A program made the translations under genes and the position numbers. A stretch of DNA of 64,000 bases from Clostridia bacterium. Its GTDB lineage: Bacteria > Bacillota > Clostridia > UMGS1883 > UMGS1540. Positions 18,444 through 57,360 of this stretch are shown here, one piece after another. The DNA lies in NCBI GenBank assembly GCA_045533905.1, contig JAZSIR010000008.1:55623-119622 (forward strand). Direction: 5' to 3'. A model generated the notes under the pieces. It made no database searches and had not been told where the DNA came from. It saw only the letters and a program-made list of their open reading frames with translations. The first letter of the stretch is position 1, and every line of letters begins with the position of its first letter.

Positions 18444-19457
18444 ATGCGAAAAAATGAAAGTTTTGTAATACCTGATGTTCTCGATAACATCGAACGCTTT
18501 TTCACAAATCCGCTGACCCGTGAAAAAGACAATGCTGACCCATGTATTATTTACTGTGAAAATGAAAAGTGCTACTACGGGATCTCTACCGGCAATACAT
18601 TTCTTACACTGCACCGATGTAATTCCCTTAAAGATATGTTCTGTCGCAGTGAATCCAAGGTTATTTACACGGCAAATCCTGAGGATGACACCTACGGATT
18701 TTTGTGGGCTCCGGAACTTCACCTCATAAAAGGAAAATGGTATGTATATACAAGCACTCATCAGAGTGTAGAAGACAAAGGCTTTAAGCATGTAATAGTT
18801 CTCGAAGCAATAACAGACTCCCCTTTTGACGGATTCAAGCTCTGCGGGCATATCAACCGAAACCTTCTTGCAATAGACCCCACGATTTATCAGGATATGG
18901 AAAATGATAAGCTTTATATCTGCTATTCCTTGGTAAAAGACGGACATCAGAGACTTGTTCTGCAACATCTCAAATCCCCCTGCGAGCCCGTGGGAGAGAT
19001 GGTGGAAATTGCCCGTGCGCAGTACAGTTGGGAAATGGTAGCTCCCTACTGTGGCAACTGGACCATCAACGAGGGTGCTTACTTTATAAAAAGCCCTAAC
19101 GGAAGACTTTTTATCGTCTATTCCGGCAACGGATGCTGGAGCGACGATTATGTGCTGGGGATAATAGAGTATATCGGAGGCGAATTCCTCAGTGCTTCTT
19201 CCTGGAAAAAGTGCGATAAACCACTCTACACAAAGGGCAACGACAACTACGGCCCGGGCCACGCAACTTTCTTCCATTCTCCCGATAAGACCGAGCTCTG
19301 GATATGTCATCACTGTCTCCACGAATCTGACCCCAAGCACAATCCTATGCCCCGCCACTGTCACTGCCAGAAAGTTTATTTTGATGAAACAGGATTTCCC
19401 CATATTGGTTTACCCGTTGCACAGGGAGTGCCGTATCCCCTGCCTTCAGGTGAATAA
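18444..19457 (+). CDS. Glycoside hydrolase family 43 (arabinofuranosidase-like), no signal peptide
   Basis: ADP, WAPELH, AIDPT, INEG, GPGHATF motifs; AAGGAG RBS. Confidence 0.92.
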   Translation: MRKNESFVIPDVLDNIERFFTNPLTREKDNADPCIIYCENEKCYYGISTGNTFLTLHRCNSLKDMFCRSESKVIYTANPEDDTYGFLWAPELHLIKGKWYVYTSTHQSVEDKGFKHVIVLEAITDSPFDGFKLCGHINRNLLAIDPTIYQDMENDKLYICYSLVKDGHQRLVLQHLKSPCEPVGEMVEIARAQYSWEMVAPYCGNWTINEGAYFIKSPNGRLFIVYSGNGCWSDDYVLGIIEYIGGEFLSASSWKKCDKPLYTKGNDNYGPGHATFFHSPDKTELWICHHCLHESDPKHNPMPRHCHCQKVYFDETGFPHIGLPVAQGVPYPLPSGE

Positions 19458-19469
19458 CTGCATAATTCG

Positions 19470-19694
19470 GTATATTTGCATACATCTCCGTCAGAATACA
19501 TCACACAATATCGATTAACTCATGCACAAATAAAATAGAAAAATCGTTTCGAAAATAATATCGATATCGCTCTTTCCTGCGGTTTTAATAGTGAATCATA
19601 TTTTGTACACGCTTTTAAAAAATGTTATGGCATAACCCCTAGTACCTACCGTATTCAGCAATTGAAAATTGGATTAGATGGCACTATATTTTAG
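19470..19694 (+). pseudogene. AraC-family HTH remnant
   Basis: My translation TSPSEYITQYRLTHAQIK*KNRFENNIDIALSCGFNSESYFVHAFKKCYGITPSTYR; in-frame TAG at 19536, no N-terminal domain. Confidence 0.85.
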
Positions 19695-19744
19695 TGAAAT
19701 ATCTCACTTCATTCCGTTACGATATGATATAAATTCCTTTTCTC

Positions 19745-19826
19745 GTTGCCGCAGGCAACATATCGTATCCGTCAGGATATATCGCACCGAAGGTATATCG
19801 CAAATTCCGTCAGGAATTTATATCGC
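19745..19826. repeat. Array of four short hairpins, each followed by ATATCG(C)
   Basis: GTTGCC-GCA-GGCAAC, TATCC-GTCA-GGATA, ACC-GAA-GGT, AAATTCC-GTCA-GGAATTT. Confidence 0.75.
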
Positions 19827-19866
19827 AAAAAAAGACGATTTCTTTGTCGAAATCTGTCTTTTTTTC

Positions 19867-19887
19867 TGGTGATCCATCGGGGATTCG
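19867..19887 (-). repeat. 21-bp duplicate of the tRNA-Lys 3' end
   Basis: TGGTGATCCATCGGGGATTCG identical at 19867-19887 and 20015-20035. Confidence 0.92.
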
Positions 19888-19975
19888 CTTTTCTGCGGAA
19901 AAGCCGGTCGCGGTTCTGACAGTCCACCGGACTGTCATTCATTCCCGCTCCTTCGAATCCCTTACATCTAAAAAT

Positions 19976-20020
19976 CACCAACAAAAAAAGGATGCATAAG
20001 CATCCTTTTTTTGTTGGTGA
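19976..20020 (-). terminator. Terminator of the tRNA operon
   Basis: TCACCAACAAAAAAAGGATGC-loop-GCATCCTTTTTTTGTTGGTGA inverted repeat. Confidence 0.8.
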
Positions 20021-20090
20021 TCCATCGGGGATTCGAACCCCGGACACCTTGATTAAAAGTCAAGTGCTCTGCCAACTGAGCTAATGGATC
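20015..20090 (-). tRNA. tRNA-Lys (TTT)
   Basis: Cloverleaf, anticodon loop CTTTTAA, GTTCGAATCC T-arm, encoded CCA. Confidence 0.96.
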
Positions 20091-20093
20091 ATG

Positions 20094-20169
20094 TGGCTGG
20101 GCTGGCTGGACTCGAACCAACGAATGCAGGAGTCAAAGTCCTGTGCCTTACCGACTTGGCTACAGCCCA
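20094..20169 (-). tRNA. tRNA-Gln (TTG)
   Basis: TGGGCTGTAGCCAAG..., anticodon loop CTTTGAC, encoded CCA. Confidence 0.96.
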
Positions 20170-20174
20170 ATAAG

Positions 20175-20252
20175 TGGGGTGGATAGTCGGATTCGAACCG
20201 ACGGCCTCTAGAGCCACAATCTAGCGCTCTAACCAACTGAGCTATACCCACC
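20175..20252 (-). tRNA. tRNA-His (GTG)
   Basis: Anticodon loop TTGTGGC, G-1 and C73, encoded CCA. Confidence 0.96.
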
Positions 20253-20256
20253 ATAT

Positions 20257-20333
20257 TGGCGCGCCTGAAGAGACTCGAACTCCTGGCCCACTGCTTAGAA
20301 GGCAGTTGCTCTATCCTGCTGAGCTACAGGCGC
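20257..20333 (-). tRNA. tRNA-Arg (TCT)
   Basis: GCGCCTGTAGCTCAG..., anticodon loop CTTCTAA, encoded CCA. Confidence 0.96.
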
Positions 20334-20342
20334 ATGCTATAT

Positions 20343-20416
20343 TGGAGCGGGTGATGGGAATCGAACCCACGCGATCAGCTTGGAAGGCTGAGATTCTACC
20401 ATTGAACTACACCCGC
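20343..20416 (-). tRNA. tRNA-Gly (TCC)
   Basis: GCGGGTGTAGTTCAATGG..., anticodon loop CTTCCAA, encoded CCA. Confidence 0.96.
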
Positions 20417-43905: not shown

Positions 43906-44055
43906 CTATTTCTTGTCAAATTTCCCACGGATCGTATCAGCCAGCATCTCAACCAGCTTTTCGAGCGCTGTCACCTTGCGTGCAAGCGGCCAGGTGATAA
44001 TCGCCGCCGTCGTCGCGCTTACCAGCAGGACCAAAAACCATAAAAACGGTTGCAC
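43906..44055 (-). CDS. Small single-TM protein (49 aa)
   Basis: GGAGGGAG RBS then GTG; hydrophobic N-terminus; hairpin CGGAGC...GCTCCG at about 43875-43891 downstream. Confidence 0.6.
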   Translation of the reverse strand: MQPFLWFLVLLVSATTAAIITWPLARKVTALEKLVEMLADTIRGKFDKK

Positions 44056-44191
44056 ATTTCTCCCTCCTTTCTTTTCTTTCGTTGCATACTCACACACCTC
44101 TCCTCACGTCATCACGTCTGTCAATACTGAAAGGTTTGTTTTCTTGAAAATTTTTTCAAAAAGAAAAAGCAGGGCAATCCGCCCCGCCATT

Positions 44192-44467
44192 TCAAAGCCT
44201 CAAAAATTCCCGATATAGCCCTTCTCTCTCCCCGGCCGTTCTGTTTTCTTCTAAGTACGCGCGGATTCTTTCGATAACTGCCGGCACGTCCTCATCCTCC
44301 GCATATCGTTCCGGATGCTGCAGTCTGCTTTTTAAGCAGTCCAGCTGCCACTTGTAGTCTGACACGAGCGGCACATCCACCACCGGAAACGTACCAACGC
44401 CCACCACCTTCTCCGCGCCAATGACCGCATACTCTCTTTCTCCTATTTTGTAGGTTTTCTTTTGCAT
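44192..44467 (-). CDS. Hypothetical protein (91 aa)
   Basis: AAGGGG RBS, protein-like composition. Confidence 0.7.
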   Translation of the reverse strand: MQKKTYKIGEREYAVIGAEKVVGVGTFPVVDVPLVSDYKWQLDCLKSRLQHPERYAEDEDVPAVIERIRAYLEENRTAGEREGLYREFLRL

Positions 44468-44598
44468 ATTCTACCCCCTTTCTTCCATGTACACGAAATG
44501 CACCCTGCTTACCTCTTGCCCGAAGTACAGGGTGTGTTTTCTTTCCCCCTTTCTTTCTTAAATACACGCGCACAATTTTAAAAAGGTTGCATTTACGC

Positions 44599-44626
44599 AA
44601 AAAGCGGAGCCGAAGCTCCGCTTTTT
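44599..44626. terminator. Intrinsic terminator of the phage late operon
   Basis: AAAAAGCGGAGC-CGAA-GCTCCGCTTTTT directly after the stop codon of the giant ORF. Confidence 0.88.
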
Positions 44627-47600
44627 CTATTCTGCATGTAGCGCATCGTATATTTCCGTACCTATTTCCACATCGTACGGATTGTTTTTCGGCTTCCACG
44701 ACTTATCCGCCAGCTGCCAAAGAACCGCCTTCTGCTTCTTCGTCAGATTCCGGTTTACCCCATCTGCCGTCGGAAGCATATAGCCGCCATGGCCCATAGC
44801 GTCAAGCGCCGCCTGCACCTCAGGCTGCTTGTAACTTCCGTTCTCATCCGCATCATATTTGGGTAATGTTTCGAGATACGCAAAGTACGTCCCCGGCGCA
44901 ACGCCATACGTATTTCCCATCGTAAGCTTCTCATATGCCCCTTCTTCCATCATCGTGGCAAGTGCCGCCATCGTTTCCGCCTCCGGAAGCTTCGCCGCCA
45001 CCACCGTCTTGTATCTCTGCATTCGGCTCACCGTTTCTTCCCCCTCTTCCGGGGTAAGTTTTTCAAGGTCAATCGAGAGGCGTATTGCATTTTCGCTCGT
45101 AAGCCCTGCATCCGTAAACTCTCTGTAGCTTGAAATCACCGTGCCGCCGGCTTCCTGCACGGTGGCAAACGCTTCTTTTCCGGACATACCCGCCGCCGTC
45201 AATTCTTTATAAAGCTCGGTTTCTTTTGCAGAAAGACTCTTGAACCCACTCCGCACCCAGTTTCGAGCCGTCGGGAGCGTCGTCTTGCCGAACAGCATCG
45301 CGCGGCCGCCGTTTAGTGCCGTCTCCCACCATTCTCCGTCGTTGTAAACCGGATACTGCAGAATTTCGTTTCCGTCTGCATCTACCGTGTAGCTGCCGCC
45401 GCGAATCATCGCATCCGCCCCTTCGGCGATTTTCTTGATTTGTCCGCCTGCAGGAAGCATGTAAAGGAGTGGCTTCGAAAGTTCTTTTGCGAGCGTCTGC
45501 CTCTTTTTCTTCCCGTCCCACTTCTCATATAGGAGTGCCTTCCCCATATTAGATACACTTGGTAACGCGCTGCTTATCGGTACACGGCCACCACCGAACA
45601 GGACACCGCCCACAAACGGCAGCTCCTCCCCTATGTTCTTCACAAGGTTGGACGCGCCCTTCCAAAGACTTGGGTTTTCCTCGCGTAAATCTGTCTCCCC
45701 GTCCACAAGATCAGAAAGTGCTGGCAAACGGTACCCCGTAAAATCTCCGGACGCTTCGTTCAAAAGACTCAAAAGGTCCATCGCAGGTCTCCTTCCAAAC
45801 AGAAGCTCGTACAGCTCATCGAAAATCCACGCCCCGAGGAACAGTTTCAAAAGCGCCACCGCAAGCGCCGCTATCCCTCTTTCCCGCATTGCACGCGGCA
45901 TATCCTTGAAAAGGTATCGGTATTGGTTGTTTACCTCAAGCTGGAACTGTGTGAATAACTTCTGCAAGGGATTTGTAGCGTTGAACGCCGTCGGCATTTC
46001 GCCGCGGCTTCGTCCCGCCATCACGCCTCGCGCAAAAGCATCGGCATCCTCCATAGCCGCCGCCTCGCTCATACCTGCGTCGATATTCTGCAGATATTTC
46101 GCGCGCACAATCGAATCCGCCGTAAATGCGTCGATGTATTCCATGCCGCCCGAAAGCTTGTCCACAGCCTTCTGGTATCCGCGCCACGCTTTCCCTATGG
46201 GGTTCTTTTTCTCCGGTCCCTGTTCCCACATCTTCACGAGCGGGTCAGACCCTCTTCTGCTTGTAAGGAATGCGCTCTGCGAAACAAAGTCGTCCGTATG
46301 GTCGAAGTACGCCCTCGCTGTCTCTCCCATACCGCGCAGGAGGTACTTCGAGTCTACAAGGCCCCACGCCTGCGTAAGCGGTATGAAGTTTGTGAGCCAG
46401 GACGGGATGTTGAGCGACACCATCGCTCCGCTCACATTGCTGTTTACGCGCTGCATAATGTTATACATTTTCCGCCCTAAGGTGTACTCCATATCTCTGT
46501 CCTGTCGGCTCTTCTTGTTTGCAAGGAGATTGGTATATTCTTCGAGTTCCACCACGAAATTCGAAAGCGCAAACTTTGCATCCTCGTAGAGCTTCGCAAT
46601 AAGCGTATCCTTTTCGTCTCGCGGCAGATCCTCGCGTTCTTCGATTCTGTCCACCTGCTTCTGCACGCCCTCGTCAGATGCCGCGTATCGGATTTCCTTT
46701 GCAAGCGCGCGAAGCTTCTGTATGTTGTCCGTCTGGTAAATGACGCCCGAAACGCCCTCGATGTACTTATCAAAGCCTTCCACCGCATCATACACCGTGT
46801 TGAACCCGAGACGTTCCTTCGCATTCCCGAACCACTGAATCCCCGGGCGGAATAAATGTGTCATGCCGTTAATGGTAGTCGGCAGTGCCGAAACTGAAGT
46901 ATCAATCCCGAGTGCCCTGCCAAACTGTGCAAGAACGCCCTCTTGCCCCGGCTGAAAATGCGGGAAATACCCTCGTCTGTAATTTACAGGTTCGTACCCG
47001 TTCCTCACGCGCACCGCATTCATTTTTTCAAATAATGTGTCGTAGATTTCGCGGAACGTCTTCACCGCCTCGCGGATCTTCCCTTCGTCAAGGTTCGGGT
47101 TTTCCGCCCAAAGCTTTTTCACATTCCCTTCCCATTCGGAAAGTGTTTGCCCGTCGCGCTTCGCGTCCTTCGGCATTACCCGTAAAACCGTGATATTATC
47201 CTCCGCTTCGCCGAGGAGCTGCACCGCATGCGCTTCGGAAACAAGGTTACCGCTCGCCACCTTTCTCGAAAGCCCGAGCGCGCGTACCTTCTCGCGCATT
47301 TCCTCTTTAAGCTTCACAGCCTCCGCGTTCCCTTTATATACGGGATTCAGATATTTTGCGATAAGCGCCGCCGCATCCTCGCCCATTACGTCCCTGAAGT
47401 TTCTCTCCATCGTTTCTATGGAGTAGCGCAGACCTGCGAGAAACTTCTTGTCTTTCCAATTTTCCATACCGCCAAGGTATTCGCGCGCCTCTGCCGCAAG
47501 CCCTTCCTTGCGTCTTCGGTTCCAGTCGCGGATGCGCTTTGCATACTGCTCGTATTCTTTTTTCGCGTTGTAAACGGCCAGAATGTCTTTCACGTTGTCC

Positions 47601-50600
47601 GTTTCCGTGTTCAAAGACATGGGGTTTATCTCGCCGCGAAGAAGCTGCCCCACGCGCACCGTATCCTCATCGGTCAAAAGCGCCTTGCGCGTCACCTTGT
47701 CAAGGTTTCGCCGCGTCGCCTTGAGGTTCTTGTACGCCTCCTGCACTTCTTCCTTTGTCTCGATGCGTGCCTTCTTTTCTTCTTCCTTTTTCTCTGTCTT
47801 GCGGCCCTGCTCGTCAGAATACCGCTTCACACGCTTGAAATCCACCGCTGCAGAATTCAGCGCCGCATGGAATTCATCCTTTGCCGCCTCTTTGAACACT
47901 TCCGCATCTTCACCATGCGCTTCATCCAGCGTCTGTTCTGTTTTCCGTATGCCGTCTGCAATTTCAAGCATATGCATAAGCTGGTCTGCAGGATGTGTAA
48001 TCTCTACCGGGAAAAGCTCCGGTGCCATTTCCTCAAGCTCCATATACGCCGAGTCCACAGGGAGTCCCCCTTCGTTTACAAGGCGAAGCTTTCCAAAGGC
48101 ACGCTTTCGAAAATCTCCAAAATCCGCAATGCTCGTGCGGTCTTCTTCGGAGATGGTCAGCTGCGTACTGCGGAGGTAGTCGCGGATGTATTTGTATTGT
48201 TTATAGTAATCTTCGTTTACTATAAGCCCCTCTCTCCACGCTGCCTCAAAAAGCTCGTCCGCCTTCGTGCGGTCAATCGCGCCGCGGTCGAGATAATCTT
48301 TCGAAATATCTCGAACAATGCTCTGCAAGGTTTCCCTTTGCGCCTTGCCCGGCACACTTAAAATTTCACCAATGCGCCCAAGCAGATGGCTTTCCGCCTG
48401 CCGAAGCGCCGCTTCTGCTTTCACAGGGAGCTTGTCCTTGGCCATCTCCTCGGCACCTGCTGCAGAGTAGCTTACCTTTATTTTTCCTTCAGCTTCTGAA
48501 GTTTTTTCACCACTTCTTCCTCCGTGTCCGTGGTAGCCACTATTTTTAACGCTTCCAGCGCCAGTTCTTTGCTGATTTGGTCGAAACTCGTAAGCAGACG
48601 AATGGTATCGTCTGAATAGCTCTCCAGCCTCCTGCTGAATGCCTCTCCGCTCACCCTCATAAATTCTCCTCCTTACGTCATCAAGACTTGTTTCGTCATA
48701 TTCGTCTATCTTTATCACGCTTGTGATAACAGGGTTCTCGATAGTGCCTTTTGCAAATACAAGGACGTTATTAACGCCCTCCTGCGATGCATCGTATATA
48801 TTGCTGACGGGTATAATATATTCCCCCGCTTTGGATTTGGGAAATTCCGCCATGCCGCTTACCGCGTCTGCAAATTTGGAACGATAGTCTGTATTTTGCC
48901 CTGCTGTAAGAATATTGTTTGCCCTGGCCCAGCCGTAATCTCTATATTCCTGTTCAGTATAACGCGGCACCGCGGCGTCCTTTTCTCCAAGGTCTGCCTG
49001 CTCTAAACTCTCGGCATTGCCGCCGGCATCCGCACTTTCAGTATACTCCGAAACTTTGTAACTGTCAATAAACTGTTCGTCGCCTTTCCAAAAAGCCTTC
49101 TGCAGCTCCGCAAAAGCGTGGAGGTAATCATAGTCCATATTGGAAAGCACATTTGCCACAAACTCTTCTATAAGAGCCTCCTCGTTGTCTTCGACGATTC
49201 CATTATAATCCGTTGCTAATTTTTCAAGAACCTGCTTTCTTTCCGAAGCTGAAAGGCTGTTTGTTATAATATTTTTGACCTTTTGAACAAGACGAGTGTT
49301 GTATTGGTCATGGATTCTTTCATGGTCATTGATTTGTTCCGGCGTAAACCATTCATTGTCATACTGCACAAGGACAGTTTTTCTTCCATCTTTTCGAACA
49401 TACACACCCCGTGCCATTTTATGGTTGCCCTTACTGTCTTTCTTCGATAGGATTCTTGCCTTTCCGGTTATGAAAATTGTTTCGTCAATACCATTTCGCA
49501 GGTTTTCTGCTTCTATTTTCCGCATACGCGGCGTGTACTGTTCTTTCGGAATAACCTCGCACGCAGTATCGTATACTACTTTTTCCTCGGTAAGCCCAGA
49601 AGCTCTGAGAGTTTCGCAATACTTTCTTCGCTCACGACCGGCTTCTCGCCCCTCTCGATAGCGGCTTGTCCTTCCATCCATTTTTCTAACTGGCTTGCCG
49701 GAACTCGCACTGTGCGTCCGCTCGCCGCTTCCATCTGATAATACACTTCTTCCTTCATTGTTTGTGCTCCCTTCGATAGTTCTAAGTGAATGATTCTCCT
49801 CATTAGAAAACCGGACATAAGGACCAATTTTCCCGTTTTTTCTTGCAATTCCGTAATGACTTAGTACAGACTGTGGCAAAATTTCCGAAAACTTTTCCTT
49901 GACAATATCCAGCAACTTCTTTATACTTATAGTAGCAGGAGCTGATGTGGAATTGGCAGTTTTGCCATCCCCCACCGTTGCCTTATTGGCAAAAGTTCCT
50001 GCTATTTTTTTTGCGTTGCCTGAAGACAAAACACCATACTCTTTTAATTCGTGCTTTCCATCTTGTCTAATGTTAACAATGAAATATGCTGGATAACTTG
50101 CTGAATCTGATTCTCCGTACCCAAGTAAAACGTATGTCCGTACGGCGCCGGCCTCCCTTGGTCTAAGTTCATTTACATAAATTGCATTTTCAATATACTC
50201 ACCAATTTTTGTGTCCACGATGGCGTTGTCCTGATATCTTCGCACTAATCCATGATTGATTCCCTCTGTGCCCACGATAATTTCTGTGTCTGTGTCCTTG
50301 TTATGCACAAAAAAAGTATTGCCATCATTGTGCTCATTTAGCCTGCTTTTCACATTTTCTTTTGCTAACGCTCGAGCTTCTGCCCTGCTAAGAATTTGTG
50401 AATCATCCACGTCTGTAATTGCCATGTCCTTCTTATTGATAAGCGAATCGTAGTCAATTGGATGTAGTGGGTCCTCGCTTAATGCATTTCCGCTGGATAT
50501 GTTAATGGGTTCTTCATCTTGGCCGGAAATTGAATACTTTCGCCCATCGTCATACAGCATGCTTTCTCCCGCCATGCTCGCTTCCGCTTCAAGGATGTCC

Positions 50601-53600
50601 ATCCTCTCATCATATTCCGCTTCCGTTATGTTTTCGTCTGCATACTCTGTAGCCACCGCATTTTTGGCAGCCTGCGTCTCGGTATGTGCCGCATGATTTC
50701 GCGGTAAAAGTTCCTCCGCTGTCGGAAGCACATGCTTTGGGAAAAGCGTATTAACATTTGTTTCTTCCTGCGTATATTTTCCGCCCTTCCGCGCATAATC
50801 ATCATTGACAACAGTATTTTCTTGTGATATACTGGTGTCAGTAGAGGATTTGTCGTTAATAGTTGCCAACCACTTATACAGTTGGGGATTCACTTGCGAC
50901 AGATCCTCTCTTTTATATTTTTCGGTAACACCATCGCTGGAAATTAAGTTCTGCACGTAATTGTTGTCAGAGCTGAATATAGTCACTACTACATTATAAT
51001 CTTTGTTTTTCCCATCAATGTCCTTGGTACTGTTAAGTTCGACGGATACAATCCCATTATTGCCTCTTTCGGTTTCTACCGTGGCAAAAAGATTTAATCT
51101 TCCGCTTGCAAGTTGTATAATCGCATCGGGGCTTTTCAAAAATTCCGGCAGTTTTTTTGCAATATCTGCCCCCAGATTGTGATAGTGCCCCTTAAATACG
51201 CCATCTTTTCTTACCGCAAGATAAAGGGTGTTATAATTAACTATAACCTTCAAGTCTCTCGCATCTTCAACATGATCCAAAATAACTTTCGGCGTATTCG
51301 AGGAAACCTCCACAGCCGTTCTCTTATCTGCCAAATCTTTTGCCACTTCATCCGAAACAGTTAAAATGCTATCTACCGCGCCACTGTAATCTTCTATCAG
51401 CTGCGCGTCTTCTTTTTCTCCTATTGTAACTTCCATTGCGGCGTTCGTCGAACGCGTTCCCTTTGTGACACCCTTTTCCACGAACGGCGCGCTCTGTTGC
51501 ACTTCCGGGGCGGTATTTGTTTTTTCTGCAACATTTGATCTTGCGTCCGTCTGTAATGTCGCCCCTTCAATGTTTAACGCCGAAAAATCTCCTCTTTGCA
51601 CCGCCATAACCTGCGCTTTCAAGGCAGAGTTTTCTCCATAAAGCTTCGCATGCACGTCACTCGTATTTTGAACGGCAGAAGCAAGGATGCCGCGAAGATG
51701 CATCGCCGCTTCCGCGAGGACGTTCGCATTGGTTATTTCCGCCGAAGCCTTGCCCGTCAGCACATAGTCTGTAAGAAGCTGTACGGCATCGGCACCGCCT
51801 TCCGAAAGCATTGTATAAGCAGGTGCCTTTCCTGCTTGCAATACGCCCACAAATGCCTCGGCATATTTTTCTACGTATGCTCTGTCAAACTGACTGTCCG
51901 CAGATTTCAGTACGCCAAGATTCGCCGCGTATACCGCGCTGTATCCACCTCTGCCGCCTGTAATTCCCTCCATTTTATCAGCCGCGGCATCGGTAATTTG
52001 CAGAGCTGCCCCAAAAATATCGGCCGCGCCTCCGGACTCGTTCGTTGTGAGTTCCACATCTCCCGTGGTTTGATACATGCGATTCACAATAGCATTTGCA
52101 TCGCTTTCGCTTACGCCTTTTTCTACAAGAGCGTTTTTTCGAATTATCAGTTCATTTGCTATATTCGCAGCATTTCCCACGGTCAAAATTGTGGTTTCCA
52201 ATTGTTCCGCGTACGCCTGAGCATATTTGATAATTTCCTTTTGTTTCGCTTCGACCTGCTCGACCGTAGCTTTTTTTATGTCCAGTATTTCAATCTTTTG
52301 ATTGTCTGCCAGAAAAGCATTGAAACCTTCGCTGATATCGTTTAAAGCAGAAGCCATATGCCTTACATTACTTTTCTGTATCGGATACGTGGCCGTTTGC
52401 ATAATAAGCGACAGCAGCACGCCTTGTTTGCCGCTTTCCAAAATTTCCGAAAACGTTGCTGCTCGTGCATTTTTGTCAACCCCCGAAATACGTTTTAATT
52501 TCGGTTCTACGCCCCGCATCAGCATTTCCTCTACGCCCTCGCTTCCAAAATTAAGCATTTTGCGCAGTCCCTTGTTTTTAACATTAAACTCAATCAAGGC
52601 ATCCCCGAAATCCGTGCCTGCAAAGCCGCCAAAAATCTTTTCCGTCATTAGTTCGCCGAGACCGGAAAGTGTACCGTAAACCAAGGATTTCCCCGCATCT
52701 TTCGATAACTCGTATCCTTCCTTCGCACTGCCCCCGGCAGCACTTGTGCCAAACACAATGCTGGAAGGAGTGAAAAATTTCTTTGATGCAGCCTTCAAAG
52801 TAGAAAGAGTGGTATTTTGGGCAGCTTTTCGCGCGAGTTCAAGTTCGAGCAGCGGGCTCCCGGTTGCTGTCATTATTTCCGCAACTATCGGAATAACTAA
52901 ATTCCCTGCACTTTGTACCACCCCTCCTAGCTCTCTTACAGCCGGATGCGGAGTCATTCGTTCTTCTGCGTTTCGGCTCATAACGTCAGATATCCCATCC
53001 GCTTCAAGGTTTTGACCTGCAAATCCCAGGACAGAATCGGCGGCCTTATTCGGAGCAACACCTCCAATTTGAAGCCCTTGCCCCACAAGCCAACTGGCCC
53101 CCGCCGTCAAATATCTGCCCGAGTTTTCCACCGTCCCGACTACGCCTGCCGCCGCTTTTGCGGCAAGATATTCGGCATTAACTGCTACCGGCCCCAGCAC
53201 CGGGTGGTTTTTTGCAAATGCCTCTCGGTCGTTTCTGGATGCTTGCGCGTGTAATACATTGAACTCCGCATCGTCCTGCTCCGTTGAGAGTTTCTTCCCA
53301 CTCAGAAACCCGAAAATCTTCTCGCGTTTTGGATCATATATCTTTCTGCCATTTTCGTCGTGGTACCATGTATAATTATGCGCCTCTGCCCATTTGTCCA
53401 AATCGTCGAAAGAAAATTCCTCCGGGTTAATATTATACTTTGCAAAAACAGGGTTGTTTTTTATCCACTCTTGTCTTTCCCTTTCTGCCAGATGCGCTTT
53501 AACCCTCTCCAGAACGCTTCCTTCGTCTTCGTCCACCGGTGCATATGTGTCTAATTTACCGTTTTGCATTGCGTAATACGCCGCCGGGCTGATTTGCACC

Positions 53601-54370
53601 GTGTCTCCTCCGTCCGGCATCACTATGCTGATGCTCTTTTGCCTTGATGCTTGCTCGGCCAACGTAAAAGCTTCTCTGGGGTCCTTCGGTATTCCCTCCA
53701 TTTTGCTCGGCAGTCTCTCCGGAACCCGTATTATTGTTCCCAAAGCAGGGTTTTCGGCCAGCCAGTCCTCCGTAACTTTCTCCTCTTTTTCGTAGTATGT
53801 TTGAAATTCCCCAAGCGTGGAATTGTGGTATTCTATTTCATCTGCATACGTGTCATATGTTTTTTGGTATCCCTTTGCACTTGTATCATAAAGAGATCTT
53901 GTCTTTTCCAAAAGAGAACGATCTGCATCCGAGCCGGTTGTTCTGTATTTGGTTTGTAAATCCTTTGCAAGCGCCCCGAAAATATCTATTTTCTTTTTCA
54001 GCGTTTTTAAGGTGCCCTCGTTTTCTTCTATGCGTTTCTTGGAATCATCCAGGGCGCTTTCGTACCAGCTCGACAAAACTCCGATTTTCGGCGTATAAGG
54101 CTGCCCGTTTTCTTTAGCTTCGCGTCTTCTCGTGTCCTCTTCCATTTGCACTTTTTGCAGCATGGCTTTGCTGCCGTATCTTCTGCGCACGCGGCTGTCG
54201 AAGTCATCTCTCGTTTCCCTTTTGCTGTTGAAAGCAGAGTTTTTTGTCTCCGTCTTTTCTTTGGTCTCTTTCTTTTCCTCCGTTTCCGCTTTTTTGTTGT
54301 TCCGCACACGGCTTTCAAAATCATCGCGTATCTCCCATAAGGTAGCGTGATTGTAATTTTTGTATGCCAT
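44627..54370 (-). CDS. Giant (3247 aa) phage polyvalent / DNA-ejection-type virion protein
   Basis: Last gene of the virion module; Ala/Gly-rich helical N-terminal region, central cassette of compact domains including a HERIH...EE zincin motif, long helical C-terminal region with hydrophobic segments. Confidence 0.88.
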   Translation of the reverse strand: MAYKNYNHATLWEIRDDFESRVRNNKKAETEEKKETKEKTETKNSAFNSKRETRDDFDSRVRRRYGSKAMLQKVQMEEDTRRREAKENGQPYTPKIGVLSSWYESALDDSKKRIEENEGTLKTLKKKIDIFGALAKDLQTKYRTTGSDADRSLLEKTRSLYDTSAKGYQKTYDTYADEIEYHNSTLGEFQTYYEKEEKVTEDWLAENPALGTIIRVPERLPSKMEGIPKDPREAFTLAEQASRQKSISIVMPDGGDTVQISPAAYYAMQNGKLDTYAPVDEDEGSVLERVKAHLAERERQEWIKNNPVFAKYNINPEEFSFDDLDKWAEAHNYTWYHDENGRKIYDPKREKIFGFLSGKKLSTEQDDAEFNVLHAQASRNDREAFAKNHPVLGPVAVNAEYLAAKAAAGVVGTVENSGRYLTAGASWLVGQGLQIGGVAPNKAADSVLGFAGQNLEADGISDVMSRNAEERMTPHPAVRELGGVVQSAGNLVIPIVAEIMTATGSPLLELELARKAAQNTTLSTLKAASKKFFTPSSIVFGTSAAGGSAKEGYELSKDAGKSLVYGTLSGLGELMTEKIFGGFAGTDFGDALIEFNVKNKGLRKMLNFGSEGVEEMLMRGVEPKLKRISGVDKNARAATFSEILESGKQGVLLSLIMQTATYPIQKSNVRHMASALNDISEGFNAFLADNQKIEILDIKKATVEQVEAKQKEIIKYAQAYAEQLETTILTVGNAANIANELIIRKNALVEKGVSESDANAIVNRMYQTTGDVELTTNESGGAADIFGAALQITDAAADKMEGITGGRGGYSAVYAANLGVLKSADSQFDRAYVEKYAEAFVGVLQAGKAPAYTMLSEGGADAVQLLTDYVLTGKASAEITNANVLAEAAMHLRGILASAVQNTSDVHAKLYGENSALKAQVMAVQRGDFSALNIEGATLQTDARSNVAEKTNTAPEVQQSAPFVEKGVTKGTRSTNAAMEVTIGEKEDAQLIEDYSGAVDSILTVSDEVAKDLADKRTAVEVSSNTPKVILDHVEDARDLKVIVNYNTLYLAVRKDGVFKGHYHNLGADIAKKLPEFLKSPDAIIQLASGRLNLFATVETERGNNGIVSVELNSTKDIDGKNKDYNVVVTIFSSDNNYVQNLISSDGVTEKYKREDLSQVNPQLYKWLATINDKSSTDTSISQENTVVNDDYARKGGKYTQEETNVNTLFPKHVLPTAEELLPRNHAAHTETQAAKNAVATEYADENITEAEYDERMDILEAEASMAGESMLYDDGRKYSISGQDEEPINISSGNALSEDPLHPIDYDSLINKKDMAITDVDDSQILSRAEARALAKENVKSRLNEHNDGNTFFVHNKDTDTEIIVGTEGINHGLVRRYQDNAIVDTKIGEYIENAIYVNELRPREAGAVRTYVLLGYGESDSASYPAYFIVNIRQDGKHELKEYGVLSSGNAKKIAGTFANKATVGDGKTANSTSAPATISIKKLLDIVKEKFSEILPQSVLSHYGIARKNGKIGPYVRFSNEENHSLRTIEGSTNNEGRSVLSDGSGERTHSASSGKPVRKMDGRTSRYREGREAGRERRKYCETLRASGLTEEKVVYDTACEVIPKEQYTPRMRKIEAENLRNGIDETIFITGKARILSKKDSKGNHKMARGVYVRKDGRKTVLVQYDNEWFTPEQINDHERIHDQYNTRLVQKVKNIITNSLSASERKQVLEKLATDYNGIVEDNEEALIEEFVANVLSNMDYDYLHAFAELQKAFWKGDEQFIDSYKVSEYTESADAGGNAESLEQADLGEKDAAVPRYTEQEYRDYGWARANNILTAGQNTDYRSKFADAVSGMAEFPKSKAGEYIIPVSNIYDASQEGVNNVLVFAKGTIENPVITSVIKIDEYDETSLDDVRRRIYEGERRGIQQEAGELFRRYHSSAYEFRPNQQRTGAGSVKNSGYHGHGGRSGEKTSEAEGKIKVSYSAAGAEEMAKDKLPVKAEAALRQAESHLLGRIGEILSVPGKAQRETLQSIVRDISKDYLDRGAIDRTKADELFEAAWREGLIVNEDYYKQYKYIRDYLRSTQLTISEEDRTSIADFGDFRKRAFGKLRLVNEGGLPVDSAYMELEEMAPELFPVEITHPADQLMHMLEIADGIRKTEQTLDEAHGEDAEVFKEAAKDEFHAALNSAAVDFKRVKRYSDEQGRKTEKKEEEKKARIETKEEVQEAYKNLKATRRNLDKVTRKALLTDEDTVRVGQLLRGEINPMSLNTETDNVKDILAVYNAKKEYEQYAKRIRDWNRRRKEGLAAEAREYLGGMENWKDKKFLAGLRYSIETMERNFRDVMGEDAAALIAKYLNPVYKGNAEAVKLKEEMREKVRALGLSRKVASGNLVSEAHAVQLLGEAEDNITVLRVMPKDAKRDGQTLSEWEGNVKKLWAENPNLDEGKIREAVKTFREIYDTLFEKMNAVRVRNGYEPVNYRRGYFPHFQPGQEGVLAQFGRALGIDTSVSALPTTINGMTHLFRPGIQWFGNAKERLGFNTVYDAVEGFDKYIEGVSGVIYQTDNIQKLRALAKEIRYAASDEGVQKQVDRIEEREDLPRDEKDTLIAKLYEDAKFALSNFVVELEEYTNLLANKKSRQDRDMEYTLGRKMYNIMQRVNSNVSGAMVSLNIPSWLTNFIPLTQAWGLVDSKYLLRGMGETARAYFDHTDDFVSQSAFLTSRRGSDPLVKMWEQGPEKKNPIGKAWRGYQKAVDKLSGGMEYIDAFTADSIVRAKYLQNIDAGMSEAAAMEDADAFARGVMAGRSRGEMPTAFNATNPLQKLFTQFQLEVNNQYRYLFKDMPRAMRERGIAALAVALLKLFLGAWIFDELYELLFGRRPAMDLLSLLNEASGDFTGYRLPALSDLVDGETDLREENPSLWKGASNLVKNIGEELPFVGGVLFGGGRVPISSALPSVSNMGKALLYEKWDGKKKRQTLAKELSKPLLYMLPAGGQIKKIAEGADAMIRGGSYTVDADGNEILQYPVYNDGEWWETALNGGRAMLFGKTTLPTARNWVRSGFKSLSAKETELYKELTAAGMSGKEAFATVQEAGGTVISSYREFTDAGLTSENAIRLSIDLEKLTPEEGEETVSRMQRYKTVVAAKLPEAETMAALATMMEEGAYEKLTMGNTYGVAPGTYFAYLETLPKYDADENGSYKQPEVQAALDAMGHGGYMLPTADGVNRNLTKKQKAVLWQLADKSWKPKNNPYDVEIGTEIYDALHAE
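48478..48660 (-). CDS. Nested +1-frame small gene (60 aa) inside the giant ORF
   Basis: TAAGGAGG-AGAATTT-ATG; amphipathic helical product MRVSGEAF...EEEVVKKLQKLKEK; the host frame is a disordered-looking linker here. Confidence 0.65.
   Translation of the reverse strand: MRVSGEAFSRRLESYSDDTIRLLTSFDQISKELALEALKIVATTDTEEEVVKKLQKLKEK
49576..49758 (-). CDS. Nested +1-frame small gene (60 aa) inside the giant ORF
   Basis: AAGGGAG-CACAAACA-ATG; product MKEEVYYQMEAASGRTVRVPASQLEKWMEGQ...; the host frame is an R/G/S-rich linker here. Confidence 0.65.
   Translation of the reverse strand: MKEEVYYQMEAASGRTVRVPASQLEKWMEGQAAIERGEKPVVSEESIAKLSELLGLPRKK
49899..49927 (+). promoter_or_regulatory. Antisense sigma-A promoter inside the giant ORF
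   Basis: TTGACA(49899-49904)-N17-TATACT(49922-49927). Confidence 0.8.
49933..50012 (+). ncRNA. Candidate antisense small RNA A (three-way junction, T8 tail)
   Basis: TAGCAGGAGCT pairs with AGTTCCTGCTA; inner hairpins TGGCA/TGCCA (within GTGG/CCAC) and TTGCC/GGCAA; T8 tract. Confidence 0.65.
50805..50833 (+). promoter_or_regulatory. Antisense sigma-A promoter inside the giant ORF
   Basis: TTGACA(50805-50810)-N17-TATACT(50828-50833) with TGn extension. Confidence 0.8.
50840..50922 (+). ncRNA. Candidate antisense small RNA B (long stem-loop, U-rich tail)
   Basis: AGAGGATTTGTCG pairs with CGACAGATCCTCT (13 bp, one G-U); inner CCAAC/GTTGG; followed by CTTTTATATTTTT. Confidence 0.65.
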
Positions 54371-54387
54371 ATATTAGCCCTTCTTTC

Positions 54388-55749
54388 TTAAAACCCTTTT
54401 TTGAAACCTACCTCTAGCATTGTATCTTCACCGAGTGCCCCTGCCAAAGTATCCCATTCCTCCGAAGTAGGTATAACCATATCCGGGTACATCGACTTTA
54501 TATTCCCCCACGGCTCCGTCTGTGGTTCTGCCTGCGGCTGCGTCTGCGGCTCCGGGATCGGAAGCGTCTCCCCGCCGCCACCGTTTCCGTTTATAACCGC
54601 CTGCAGAAGGCTGTTGTTCCCTGTTGCGTCATACACGTCTTTGGCGTAGTCAAGCTCTGCGCCCTTCACTTCAAGCCCCAAAAGCTTTTTGATATAGCTC
54701 GCATCATACCCGAGCGCCTCAAATTCGCTGGTATCCCCCGTAGCATTTGCCACATTCATAGCGTGCGAAAGCTTCGCCGCTGCTTCCTCTCGTCCGTACT
54801 CTGCTTCAAGACGGCTTGTGTCAATCCCGAGCCTCTGTAAAGGTTTCAAGTCCCCAGCTTCCAATGCCTTATATGCCATCTCAACAGTGTCCTTAAACCG
54901 ATCGTATTTACTGTCATCTATGGTCTTCAGAATATCCGCATCGCTGACAAGTCTGTCGCGCTCGCCCGCCCAAACATCGTACGCGAAGTTACGTCCATCC
55001 CTGTAGTCCTGGACTTTATCGCGGTGCTTTTGATAGTCGCTTTCTTCGAGCGCCCGCAATACATCCAAATCCTGTATTTTCATCGCGTGCTCGTTCATAT
55101 ACTGGTTGTACGCCGCCTCGTAAAGCTCCGGAATTTTATCCGAAAGCGCCGCCGCATATTGATTCCCCGCCTGTGCCGCGGCCGTCATTGCGTAGGAAGA
55201 AGGAATGCCGCCCGTCATGGCTGCCGCTATCCCCATGGTATCCTCTGTCGCGCGCCGTCCTTCGCGTGTATACTGCTTTTTATACTGCGCAAAGCGCGGG
55301 TCCGTCTCCGCATCATAGGTAAACGGATCACGGTTTAAAATCTCGTTGCGGATTTTCCGCATGTCGCGGTCGTTTCGGCTCACATATGTCGGCGCCTCCT
55401 CGTCGTATGTAAACGGCTCATAGTTTGCCACTTTATCTACCGCACTCTGTACCTTGCCCGATACTGTCGGGAAGGAAGACGTCGCATCGCTCACCGGTTC
55501 CTTGTAGTACCAGTCTCCCGCGGCGCCGCCTGTATACCCGCCATACTTTTTGCGGACTGCCTCCGCGCCCTGGTTTGCCATGGCTCTTGCCTCGTCCGTT
55601 TCCGCGGCGTAGTATTCCGTCTTATAGTTTAGAATCTGCATCCCTGCGTCCGGATTTTCCCTCGCAAGCTTCAAGTCAAAATCCGAAAACCGCTCAAATA
55701 ATCCTCTGCCCTTTGCCGCTTTTTCAAAATCCTCGTACGTGATATTCAT
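54388..55749 (-). CDS. Phage protein, probable internal virion/ejection protein (453 aa)
   Basis: Helical Ala/Gln/Tyr-rich protein with AAAMTGGIPSSYA segment; between the tail-hub-like gene and the giant ORF. Confidence 0.7.
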   Translation of the reverse strand: MNITYEDFEKAAKGRGLFERFSDFDLKLARENPDAGMQILNYKTEYYAAETDEARAMANQGAEAVRKKYGGYTGGAAGDWYYKEPVSDATSSFPTVSGKVQSAVDKVANYEPFTYDEEAPTYVSRNDRDMRKIRNEILNRDPFTYDAETDPRFAQYKKQYTREGRRATEDTMGIAAAMTGGIPSSYAMTAAAQAGNQYAAALSDKIPELYEAAYNQYMNEHAMKIQDLDVLRALEESDYQKHRDKVQDYRDGRNFAYDVWAGERDRLVSDADILKTIDDSKYDRFKDTVEMAYKALEAGDLKPLQRLGIDTSRLEAEYGREEAAAKLSHAMNVANATGDTSEFEALGYDASYIKKLLGLEVKGAELDYAKDVYDATGNNSLLQAVINGNGGGGETLPIPEPQTQPQAEPQTEPWGNIKSMYPDMVIPTSEEWDTLAGALGEDTMLEVGFKKGF

Positions 55750-55761
55750 CTAAAACCCTCC

Positions 55762-57360
55762 TTATAATTCGCTCCCCGCGTATATTTCCTGTGTTATAGA
55801 ATAGATCTTCCACATCCCCACGCCCTCAATGCGAAGCCGGAAATGGTCGCACCGGCGCGGAATGATGGGAAGATAAAAGCTCCGCTTTTTCTCGGCACGC
55901 ACCGTCTTCACCTCGCGCCACACGCCGTCAGAATCAAACTGCGCGAGAACCCGCAAAGAAGCCCCTTCCGAAAGCTCCGCGCGCATCTGCAGCTTTGCCA
56001 CGCCTTTTTTGTCCGGGGCGCCTCCCGTAAAATCGCCAAACTCTGCAAAGCTTTCCACAAAGCGCTCGCCGTCCTCGCCGTCCGTCTCCCCGTCGCACCA
56101 AGCGCCGTCCGCCCGAAGTCGAATAAGTCTCTGCCCGTCCCATGCAAAGGCGAGCACCCTCTCCCCGTCCTCACGGTGCCACATTCTTTTTTGCGTGTCA
56201 TACGAAAAGGTGTGGTACTTTCCCTGCATATCCTCCATCGAAATATAGTATTTGATGCCGTCGCTGCCGCCGACGGCATTTTTGTATTTCTCCATCCCGA
56301 AAGGCGCAGAGATGAGCTGCGGCGCACCGCCTGTGTATACCGCCACGCCGCCACGCGAAAGATAGAAGAGCATCTCGCCCGCAATCGCCGCGCTTTTTTC
56401 GCTTCCCTTTGCGATGCCCATCGTCGCGCTTCCGAGTATCTGAAAGTTTTGCGCCCTGTCGCCGTATACCTTGTAGACATGCTCCTCTTTGAAAAAGCAA
56501 GGGTACCCGAGAAGGCTCGCGCATCCCGTAAAGTTTCCAAAGCTTCCCGTGTCGGCGGCAAAGCTGTCGGTGGAAATCCCGTCAAACACATTCCAGTTGA
56601 AAGGGTCTCCGGGCTTCGAAGCGTAAATGGTATCGCCGCGGCAACCCCAAACGCGGTTTTCATTTGTGCACATAAAGTCCATATCGGGCACATTTCTTCG
56701 GAGCGTAATCGCCGCCTCCGCGTCTCCCCCTTCTCCTATCGTAAAGCTGTTTTCGTAAAACCGAAGCGTATCGCCCTCTATCTCGCGCACGATAATCTGC
56801 ACGTTGTTCTCTCGGTGCGCCGCACAGCCCGAAATCTCTACCGCATCGCCTACGCGAAAAAGACTGCCCCAGTCCGCGCCTTCTGCATATATCGTGTTGG
56901 CTGCAGCCTTCTCGCCTTCATAGGTGCCGTCTTGAATCTTAGCCGCGCCCTTCCACTCTGCCTCAAGACTTCCGCTCTCGCCCGTTTTTGCATTGTAGTA
57001 TTTTTTGTCGGGAAAAAGTAAAATGTACGCACCAAACGCCGTGCACACCTTCTCCCCCTCCGAAAGCGATACGAGCATGACGCGCTGCCCCCCTCCGGGA
57101 AAGTATTCGCAAAACGCATCCTTCCCTATGAGATAGTAGCGCCCGTCAAAGGCATATAACGCCTGCACATCCGCATCCTCTTCCAAAAAGCGCTTTCTCG
57201 GCTTTCTCGGGGAAAGGATGGGATATAAATCGCTCGTAAGATTTTCCATATCCCATATTTCCCCTTCCGCGCAGGCGGTTGTGTGGTTGTATCCCCCAAA
57301 CTGCACCTGCGTCGTTTTCCCGAGGCCGTCGCCGTACAGCATAGAAGGCAGTCCGTTCAT
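55762..57360 (-). CDS. Phage tail hub / packaged-DNA stabilization-like protein (532 aa)
   Basis: Beta-rich with DMENL.S...LSPR start, NRVWG..IYASK.GDPFNW, FFKE, FYLSRGGV; position typical of P22 gp10-like genes (inferred). Confidence 0.7.
   Translation of the reverse strand: MNGLPSMLYGDGLGKTTQVQFGGYNHTTACAEGEIWDMENLTSDLYPILSPRKPRKRFLEEDADVQALYAFDGRYYLIGKDAFCEYFPGGGQRVMLVSLSEGEKVCTAFGAYILLFPDKKYYNAKTGESGSLEAEWKGAAKIQDGTYEGEKAAANTIYAEGADWGSLFRVGDAVEISGCAAHRENNVQIIVREIEGDTLRFYENSFTIGEGGDAEAAITLRRNVPDMDFMCTNENRVWGCRGDTIYASKPGDPFNWNVFDGISTDSFAADTGSFGNFTGCASLLGYPCFFKEEHVYKVYGDRAQNFQILGSATMGIAKGSEKSAAIAGEMLFYLSRGGVAVYTGGAPQLISAPFGMEKYKNAVGGSDGIKYYISMEDMQGKYHTFSYDTQKRMWHREDGERVLAFAWDGQRLIRLRADGAWCDGETDGEDGERFVESFAEFGDFTGGAPDKKGVAKLQMRAELSEGASLRVLAQFDSDGVWREVKTVRAEKKRSFYLPIIPRRCDHFRLRIEGVGMWKIYSITQEIYAGSEL

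Follow-up and report, generated by a model that had tools for sequence, protein, structure and literature searches.

We analysed a 64,000-nucleotide stretch of a Clostridia bacterium genome (assembly GCA_045533905.1, contig JAZSIR010000008.1, positions 55,623 to 119,622), hereafter the window, which contains a prophage whose last large gene is a minus-strand open reading frame (ORF) for a giant polyvalent protein. Nested within this ORF, on the opposite strand and at the edge of an LPD3-like protein module, lies a compact unit (unit A) made up of a promoter, a folded body and a T-run, from which a small RNA (sRNA A) would be transcribed. A second unit (unit B, sRNA B) lies elsewhere in the same ORF. 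The features that concern unit A are as follows.

44627..54370, minus strand: giant polyvalent protein gene, 3247 amino acids, enclosing the nested units A and B
49751..50473, minus strand: LPD3-like module, amino acids 1300-1540, with a weak Pfam LPD3 match
49899-49904, plus strand: -35 hexamer TTGACA of sRNA A; the sense strand reads xxT-GTC-AA, the I-V-K of the protein motif ISIxxLLxxV(N/K)
49922-49927, plus strand: -10 hexamer TATACT of sRNA A; the sense strand reads AGT-ATA, the S-I of the motif
49933-50004, plus strand: body of sRNA A, a three-way junction of ~72 nt with its predicted 5′ end at 49933-49935
49933-49943 / 49994-50004, plus strand: closing stem P1, TAGCAGGAGCT / AGTTCCTGCTA, 11 pairs, one of them G-U
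49947-49950 / 49972-49975, plus strand: P2, which encloses P2a (whole hairpin 49947-49975)
49954-49958 / 49963-49967, plus strand: P2a, nested within the P2 hairpin
49978-49982 / 49988-49992, plus strand: P3, the second inner hairpin (49978-49992)
50005-50012, plus strand: U8 tract (T8 in DNA) directly 3′ of P1; the sense strand reads AAA AAA, codons of a conserved AKK

The promoter of sRNA A, TTGACA-N17-TATACT with a 17-nt spacer, spans 49899-49927 on the plus strand. In a scan of 44000-56000 it is one of three sites that reach the top score of 11 of 12 matches. Five bases lie between its -10 hexamer and the 5′ strand of P1, and P1 brings the first and last bases of the body into pairing with each other. 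The three-way junction is both the minimum free energy (MFE) and the centroid structure in RNAfold (-33.8 kcal/mol, z -5.26), with one of 200 shuffled sequences as stable. P1 and the U8 tract form a predicted intrinsic terminator, whose efficiency can only be inferred because P1 is not a local hairpin and instead closes the whole junction. Sigma-A consensus promoter, folded body and U8 terminator together make sRNA A a predicted complete small-RNA gene.

A sequence-only reading of the window had described this promoter, an 11-bp closing stem, two hairpins and the T8 tract; each lies where that reading placed it, and RNAfold returns the same junction. Its description of the shape as 'loosely tRNA-like' does not hold, and a tRNA or tRNA-like gene is rejected: ARAGORN and Rfam give only five tRNAs, at 20015-20416, and none at unit A. 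For Rfam 15, a search of 48800-51200 (E up to 10), one of the window at the gathering score and one of 20 related loci (E up to 0.1) all failed to give a relevant match. A peptide gene over unit A is likewise rejected, as the only plus-strand ORF (49899-50096) begins within the -35 hexamer and reads through the terminator. We also discarded a hammerhead-like CUGAUG, which is present in single sequences only and has no Rfam match. Tandem repeats of unit A are absent, Tandem Repeats Finder on 49700-51100 returning only an unrelated 15-nt, two-copy row at 50558-50587.

On the protein side, the frame opposite unit A reads AKKIAGTF...APATISIKKLLDIVK (amino acids 1453-1491). Two conserved motifs, LYSxxAKK and TISIxxLLDxV(N/K), flank the unit in the alignment of homologous proteins, and the stretch between them varies in length and sequence. 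An AlphaFold (AF2) model of the LPD3-like module, built on a 26-row alignment, has a mean predicted local distance difference test score (pLDDT) of 80.3. In this model the RNA body lies opposite module residues 162-178, with pLDDT <50, and the promoter opposite a confident helix, 184-191; the body of sRNA A is thus predicted to face a disordered loop of the module.

The unit is conserved in distant phages

A 7-row domain alignment retrieved 30 IMG/VR loci with 28-43% amino acid identity. We scanned these with a script for cassettes, the term used hereafter for a promoter upstream of a stem of 7 bp or more with a T-run immediately 3′ of that stem. At the homologous site, 28 of the 30 loci carry an antisense TTGAC(A/T)-N17-TA(T/C)ACT with a closing stem and T-run, which strongly supports the earlier placement of a real antisense unit at the C-terminal edge of the LPD3-like domain. 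L021 has the unit with an extra hairpin; in L031 none was found. Together with the window, 28 loci give 29 rows in which the motif pattern is recognised (it missed L004 and L031); 25 of these have exact TTGACA and TATACT hexamers separated by 17 nt, and the other four reach 10 of 12 matches. In four loci (L005, L006, L007 and L013) there is another copy of the module, followed by a unit of its own ~640 nt from the first. The closing stems vary in sequence yet stay paired, for instance GAACCGG/CCGGTTC, TAGTAGAAG/CTTCTACTA and GTCGGGAG/CTCCCGAT. In five IMG/VR phage records, three of them 98-100% complete, the exact promoter pattern occurs five times, always at a cassette, and its reversed control does not occur.

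A covariance model, R1, was built from 15 main-group sequences picked from the 28. It recovered sequences on which it had not been trained: L023 and L025 at 6e-8, L028 and L029 at 4e-7, L021 at 3e-5 and the second copies of L005 and L006 at 0.012. A group of short units (L004, L007, L008 and L010) gave no match to R1 at E up to 1.

Nearer relatives with DNA were not found in single-protein scans of genome and viral contig collections or in the genomes of 60 relatives. The 68%-identical protein P0002 has no DNA in the genome or metagenome contig collections, and the annotated collections gave one unannotated phage record and no plasmid.

Selection acts on the nucleotides of the antisense strand

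Where the promoter overlaps conserved residues, synonymous codon choice is fixed. Although the rows are related, so that the counts overstate their independence (~18 distinct sequences, L004 and L031 not being among those that the motif pattern found), the serine at the -10 hexamer is encoded by AGT in 29 of 29, against 14.6% of 2193 serine codons in the same ORFs. The isoleucine at the -10 is ATA in 28 of 28 (20.0% of 1856 in the same ORFs; L032 has valine there), and the valine at the -35 is GTC in 29 of 29 (15.0% of 2317). By contrast, the leucine, aspartate, asparagine and first isoleucine codons between or beside the hexamers vary synonymously, and this difference between hexamer codons and their neighbours is plain despite the kinship of the rows.

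The base pairs show the same kind of constraint. In a 21-row alignment of distinct sequences, fitted to the model and hence leaning towards the model's structure, 84.1% of cells pair, compared with 70.8% in shuffles (none of 500 reaches the observed value), and changes on both sides are seen in 18 of 23 pairs. P1 is 97% paired in this alignment, with 7 of its 9 pairs covarying, and P3 is 90% paired; P2 and P2a have 65-81% of their cells paired, partly due to register shifts. Sliding the partners by 1-3 columns as a control reduces pairing to 38-51%. RNAalifold on a plain MAFFT alignment gives independent support for P1 and P3, with compensatory changes in 11 of 15 predicted pairs. Covariation on the antisense strand, which the sequence-only reading had put forward as a check, is thus seen in both stems. 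Loop amino acids, meanwhile, differ among homologues while the hexamers and base pairing persist. That reading had named amino acids kept with hexamers and pairing lost as the pattern that would tell against it; what we find is the opposite, with loop residues lost and the hexamers, fixed codons and compensated pairs kept.

The same data bear on whether the antisense strand is the relevant one. Selection might instead act on a sense-strand element, in which the A8 run and adjoining structure form a -1 frameshift or pausing signal, or the promoter might be a by-product of the conserved S-I and V-N residues. The hexamers do fall in a conserved protein motif, GCA AAA AAA is a formal slippery heptamer, and in the window the sense RNA also folds well (-31.8 kcal/mol, z -4.69). 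However, the choice of hexamer codons is fixed far beyond usage, and the A-run is not conserved as a heptamer in homologues (the L014 sense strand, for example, reads AAAAACAG). The antisense strand also folds more stably in 24 of 26 distinct bodies, and its MFE structures contain 73 G-U pairs, compared with 19 on the sense strand. Each antisense G-U is an A-C mismatch in the mRNA, as is the U-G pair at the junction end of P1, which is kept in 18 of 21 rows. The codon and strand tests largely refute both versions of this explanation, leaving it the slimmest of chances.

A second unit and islands of nucleotide identity

Unit B is associated with a different module of the giant protein:

50805-50833, plus strand: sRNA B promoter, TTGACA-N17-TATACT with a TG extension
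50840-50924, plus strand: predicted sRNA B, directly after MuF_C, with closing stem AGAGGAUUUGUCG / CGACAGAUCCUCU, an inner hairpin and a T-rich tail
50933..51190, minus strand: MuF_C domain (PBECR-type, predicted RNase), amino acids 1061-1146, Pfam PF18819, E 2.2e-7

The closing stem of sRNA B has 13-14 bp, and the predicted fold reaches -31.6 kcal/mol. Two IMG/VR loci with 78% amino acid identity (L036 and L037) keep sRNA B with a perfect TTGACA-N17-TATAAT and TG extension, and the three stem pairs that have changed in them all still pair (one G-C to A-U, two U-A/U-G swaps). A pattern for sRNA B had 0 matches in IMG/VR.

Metagenome contigs match the units more closely than their surroundings. 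Contigs from four gut-metagenome DNA runs match 50842-50919 with unlike flanks, and TATACT is visible in their unmatched upstream ends. In another gut-metagenome contig the match covers unit A and its promoter (49866-50011; one mismatch, one deletion), and the sequences diverge right after the T-run. Because such contigs match the units while the flanks differ, units A and B appear as islands of nucleotide identity at module borders. A further contig (run X4) joins 48757 to 49575, skipping 817 nt. Joins of this kind and the divergence after the unit A T-run suggest module-level mosaicism, with break points at cassette borders.

One cassette accompanies each LPD3 or MuF_C module

Cassettes were surveyed in 300 sampled genomes of the host's class at loci of two Pfam families, LPD3 (PF18798) and MuF_C (PF18819):

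LPD3 (PF18798): 16 of 300 genomes, 17 loci, 13 with an antisense cassette after the domain end
MuF_C (PF18819): 17 of 300 genomes, 19 loci, 17 with an antisense cassette after the domain end

The -35 hexamer lies 122-176 nt from the domain end at LPD3 loci and 89-128 nt from it at MuF_C loci, and 10 approximate, dinucleotide-preserving shuffles give expectations of 0.4 and 0.3 loci, respectively. Antisense cassettes outnumber sense ones by 25:1 for LPD3 and 30:2 for MuF_C, a comparison in which the A-rich sense strand favours T-runs on the antisense strand. The survey loci are not all independent (L040 and L054 overlap, as do L061 and L072; L071 and L073 are near-identical), and they include the window itself (L069) and a second locus of the same genome (L043).

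Tandem and solo modules alike have one cassette per LPD3 or MuF_C module. Giant genes carry different numbers: two in the window, three in G062 (at 630-nt spacing), one in G061 and two in G063. The cassette is also found in solo ORFs of 317-413 amino acids, where it overlaps the 3′ part of the gene; since these solo ORFs carry it, the cassette belongs to the module and not to giant genes as such. Together with the codon, pairing and strand data above, these results show that the unit is selected at the nucleotide level on the antisense strand, one per module. In genome G230, a tRNA gene (L040:2555-2626, minus strand) lies ~600 nt from a tandem pair of cassette-bearing solo LPD3 ORFs and may be the integration site of that element.

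The RNAs themselves are diverse. Interiors differ widely among subfamilies, with one to three inner hairpins, and units measure 55-90 nt. In the MuF_C-type RNAs, an apical hairpin GCAAUUG(G/C)AGC lies opposite the protein motif LQL(P/L) in 12 of 19 MuF_C loci, with the glutamine encoded by CAA in 12 of 12 and the second leucine by TTG in 12 of 12. Among 14 distinct RNAs picked for this loop motif, all but one of 11 aligned columns are invariant. The hairpin contains the palindrome CAAUUG, and the lower stems covary; further examples are found at L036:2626-2700, L047:3091-3163 and L051:2068-2150. The loop (CAATTGSAG) was not found in the window.

Across all 75 distinct cassettes, the median body length is 65 nt; in 37 of them P1 begins 6 nt downstream of the -10 hexamer, a placement that fits a design for a stable RNA. 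This regularity is relevant to the idea that the act of transcription alone matters, the convergent promoter and immediate terminator serving as a roadblock or insulator that lowers late-operon read-through across toxic modules, with no role for the RNA. Promoter and terminator are indeed the most strictly conserved parts, and the interiors vary. Yet a simple local hairpin would terminate equally well, and instead the first transcribed bases pair with the last; the inner helices covary; and otherwise dissimilar phages share the bodies as islands of nucleotide identity. Because of the end pairing, the inner-helix covariation and the identity islands, we favour selection on the RNA product and regard a role for transcription alone as very improbable.

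The promoter pattern across the window and genome

The exact pattern TTGACA-N17-TATACT occurs at 6 sites in the 64-kb window, where 0 are expected and none of 100 shuffles reaches this count. Three sites lie inside the giant ORF, at 49899 (plus), 50805 (plus) and 49068 (minus). The other three are at putative host-type transcription units, as the sequence-only reading had recognised in likening unit A to the tRNA-operon, thiT (thiamine pyrophosphate (TPP) riboswitch) and trxA promoters:

12438: exact TTGACA-N17-TATACT, upstream of the TPP riboswitch
20463: exact TTGACA-N17-TATACT, upstream of a five-tRNA operon
39109: exact TTGACA-N17-TATACT, upstream of a 108-amino-acid thioredoxin ORF with WCGPC (trxA)

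The third copy in the giant ORF, at 49068-49040 on the minus strand, points in the sense direction and overlaps amino acids 1768-1777, FIDSYKVSEYTE; a GC-rich stem follows it, with no T-run after the stem. This site may act as a promoter within the giant gene for its distal third, or be there by chance.

The cassette scanner gives 13 matches across the whole 1.57-Mb assembly. Combining an 11/12 promoter with a 70-83-nt body leaves four units in the assembly: A, B and a pair on contig C11, where the genome has another LPD3 locus. The LPD3 ORF of this other locus, 1368 amino acids long, lies at ~31.5-33.4 kb of C11 (L043), with antisense cassettes at C11:32154 and C11:33396 that have 11/12 promoters and bodies of 80 and 83 nt, and a weaker one at L043:1370. 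The exact promoter pattern is present at two more sites of the same genome, C15:103463 and C19:79689 (both plus strand), each leading into a structured stretch of ~132 nt that ends in a T-run (-43.7 and -43.8 kcal/mol). In the window, positions 14000-20000, just before the tRNA operon, have a G+C content of 0.36-0.41, compared with ~0.50 elsewhere, and may be a foreign island.

Protein modules and the prophage setting

The giant gene is preceded on the same strand by genes for an amidase, a P22-like portal, a large terminase and an 'internal virion protein', and host genes start below ~43.5 kb. A large protein collection holds 68 relatives of the giant protein, most of them 2400-4400 amino acids long and encoded on phage-sized contigs of ~40 kb; many have PBECR5, MuF_C or LPD3 domains. 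The LPD3 match in the window is weak (PF18798, 18.3 bits against a cut-off of 27, E 0.0027). Of seven aligned homologues, five match PF18798, the best at E 1.5e-6, and P0052 reaches 84 bits.

These modules matter for one possible role of the RNA, that of an antidote or partner which binds the LPD3-like or MuF_C domain as an inhibitor or pseudo-substrate. Such an RNA would render the effector harmless to the producer or the lysogen, or turn an injected effector off once the incoming genome is transcribed, and nesting it in the domain's own coding sequence would keep toxin and antidote inseparable during module shuffling. Having one cassette per module, tandem and solo, across two different domain families fits this well. 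In the MuF_C-type RNAs, synonymous sites of the apical loop do not vary, the U-G pair at the junction end of P1 is retained throughout most of the main LPD3 group (18 of 21), and paired ends would suit a long-lived ribonucleoprotein component. To our knowledge, however, no RNA antitoxin is encoded antisense within its own toxin gene.

Evidence from the proteins is mixed. In the part of Iyer et al. 2017 covered here, MuF-C is described as a PBECR domain and a predicted BECR RNase. With the model of the LPD3-like module, Foldseek found nothing in the PDB at E up to 0.001. A wide VIA-align search with the same model gave weak matches that are mostly RelE (RelE/ParE), CdiA-CT, BrnT and colicin D, the best at Z 4.5 and none at 5 or above; according to the tool, Z <5 may reflect only a common arrangement. 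With hhalign the MuF_C region and the LPD3-like alignment give a probability of ~0.1 and no link, so homology of the two modules is not claimed here. The wide differences between RNA interiors also speak against a shared protein-binding role. The sequence-only reading had preferred a protein-binding RNA, a decoy or type III-like antitoxin; its promoter, body and terminator antisense at the edge of the LPD3-like domain stand, and the defining features of type III systems do not, as the unit is free of repeats, antisense and nested. STnc6030, the sole case with experimental support in which a prophage RNA faces the gene of an injection protein, excludes by antisense action, and this too counts against protein binding. 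On balance we think an RNA antidote, the chief rival to cis-antisense silencing, unlikely. The broader proposal, in which each BECR-type or LPD3 effector module has a nested RNA immunity factor, giving a recombination-proof toxin-antidote pair and an off-timer for the injected effector, is similarly doubtful; should the RNA indeed bind the module, toxin and immunity would be paired in a new way.

A possible role in silencing the module mRNA

The function we consider foremost, at about even chances, is that sRNA A silences the mRNA of the giant-gene module by base-pairing, acting both as a lysogeny lock and in superinfection exclusion. Transcription by host sigma-A RNA polymerase would be constitutive, both in the lysogen and from the moment phage DNA enters. 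In Gram-positive bacteria, 5′-end-dependent decay needs an unpaired 5′ end, and the paired 5′ and 3′ ends may make the RNA long-lived. Loop-loop contacts would then initiate pairing between the RNA and its exact complement in the late mRNA, and the duplex would trigger cleavage or block translation. In this way a probably toxic RNase-like module would be kept silent in the carrier cell, and the same module would also be hit in superinfecting relatives that share the cassette.

sRNA A lies wholly inside the giant ORF on the opposite strand and is therefore fully complementary to its mRNA. Within the genome this cis target is the only extended complementarity to A or B, the best other matches being 12-16 nt, at chance level. 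We propose cis-antisense silencing because of this full complementarity, the 3′ overlap in solo genes, the shared identity islands and the precedent of STnc6030 (see below).

The complementarity search also bears on a trans-acting RNA, directed against the host or a host defence as a nuclease decoy, CRISPR (clustered regularly interspaced short palindromic repeats)-repeat mimic or regulator of host mRNAs, for which the giant gene would simply be an always-inherited slot. A strong host-type promoter would put such an RNA among the first and most abundant phage transcripts, and the conserved MuF_C-type loop could be a trans seed. Against this, neither A nor B has an extended match elsewhere in the genome, neither matches a tRNA or an Rfam family, and the sequence diversity of the cassettes argues against one conserved host target. 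A k-mer scan found no CRISPR array and no Cas1 was found in the 95.5%-complete assembly, although arrays often drop out of assemblies. A trans-acting RNA thus seems improbable, somewhat more so than an antidote.

Several observations weigh against cis-antisense silencing or against the predicted RNA on which it depends. No sRNA A transcript was seen: no RNA run matched the stretch, the matches being to four gut-metagenome DNA runs, in small shares. Since no RNA run contained the stretch, the start, end and abundance of sRNA A are all predictions. A closing stem across ~60 nt is an unusual terminator. R1 gives no match to the window's own copy at E up to 1, so the window RNA shares architecture and position, and not alignable sequence, with most relatives. 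Cassette fold z-scores are biased upward because the scanner was designed with the pattern already known and requires a stem by construction. Pure cis-antisense pairing also leaves unexplained why each module in a tandem array retains a separate cassette whose consensus promoter is intact, and why the apical loop GCAAUUG(G/C)AGC is invariant at synonymous sites; the one-per-module rule and this loop would fit a sequence-specific partner. Finally, silencing does not explain how the phage escapes its own RNA during late synthesis of the giant protein, a gap that it shares with STnc6030.

Whichever function applies, two recurrent polyvalent modules, LPD3 and MuF_C, carry a second, predicted RNA-coding layer on the opposite strand (30 of 36 sampled loci, in one class). 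This layer shapes the protein: 'AKK' doubles as the terminator, 'SIxxLLxxVN' as the promoter and the variable loop as the RNA body, a clear natural example of dual coding, with a promoter holding synonymous codons fixed. Few proteins of phages and conjugative elements are as large or as poorly understood as the polyvalent proteins, and the units offer a testable handle on how temperate gut phages silence putatively toxic injected effectors or exclude rivals. Gene callers and RNA-family libraries currently miss such units.

Comparison with known systems

In size, in having their own promoter and terminator and in full complementarity to a phage mRNA, the closest counterparts of sRNA A are classical phage antisense RNAs. 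Lambda OOP, P22 sar and P1/P7 c4 are RNAs of ~70-80 nt with their own promoter and intrinsic terminator, and they pair with fully complementary phage mRNA. They differ from sRNA A in overlapping gene ends or intergenic regions of regulatory genes. We know of no case among OOP, sar and c4 in which promoter or terminator lies in conserved codons of a structural or effector module, or in which the RNA recurs with each copy of a domain.

Toxin-antitoxin systems offer two further comparisons. Type III antitoxins of the ToxI type are tandem repeats encoded on the same strand upstream of the toxin; they are processed by the toxin, an endoribonuclease, and bind and inhibit it. Should the unit encode an antidote, the likeness would be that of a structured RNA neutralising an endoribonuclease by binding. 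A ToxI-like antitoxin is nonetheless rejected, as unit A is single, antisense, nested in coding sequence and without tandem repeats. The Gram-positive prophage type I systems txpA/RatA and bsrG/SR4 have a cis-antisense RNA with its own promoter that overlaps the 3′ part of the toxic gene, much as the cassette is placed in solo LPD3 and MuF_C ORFs. Type I toxins, however, are small hydrophobic peptides, and what lies opposite the cassette is a 200-amino-acid RNase-like module, putatively toxic and often part of a protein of >3000 amino acids. A type I system is therefore also rejected, the target being a module of a 3247-amino-acid protein, or of solo forms of 317-413 amino acids, and not a small peptide. 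Prophage-borne type I systems are also described for C. difficile, in the portion of PMC7699646 covered here.

The nearest functional precedent is STnc6030 of the Salmonella prophage BTP1, a P22-like phage. According to the part of the source covered here (Owen et al. 2020, PMC7067206), STnc6030 is a lysogen-expressed non-coding RNA antisense to a DNA-injection gene of the late operon, and its expression alone excludes superinfecting BTP1-type phage; the same text names lambda OOP as a short phage cis-antisense RNA. Both cases involve a prophage RNA opposite the gene of an injection protein. STnc6030 is, however, ~786 nt long and extends across two genes, as opposed to the compact promoter-to-terminator units of 55-90 nt described here, each nested in one protein loop. 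That part of PMC7067206 reports no module linkage, codon-embedded promoter or family-wide conservation for STnc6030; the units described here occur once per module and are known from sequence.

Our literature search found no report of such nested antisense RNA units. In Iyer et al. 2017, which defined polyvalent proteins, the terms antisense, noncoding, small RNA and promoter have 0 occurrences (supplements aside); a 2026 preprint on the BECR fold contains neither antisense nor polyvalent, and the portion of the MuF polymorphic-toxin paper covered here has 0 matches for 'antisense RNA'. Cis-antisense small-RNA genes themselves are well known. What is new and unusual in the present case is their design: nested within a protein module, linked to that module wherever it recurs, and embedded in its codons.

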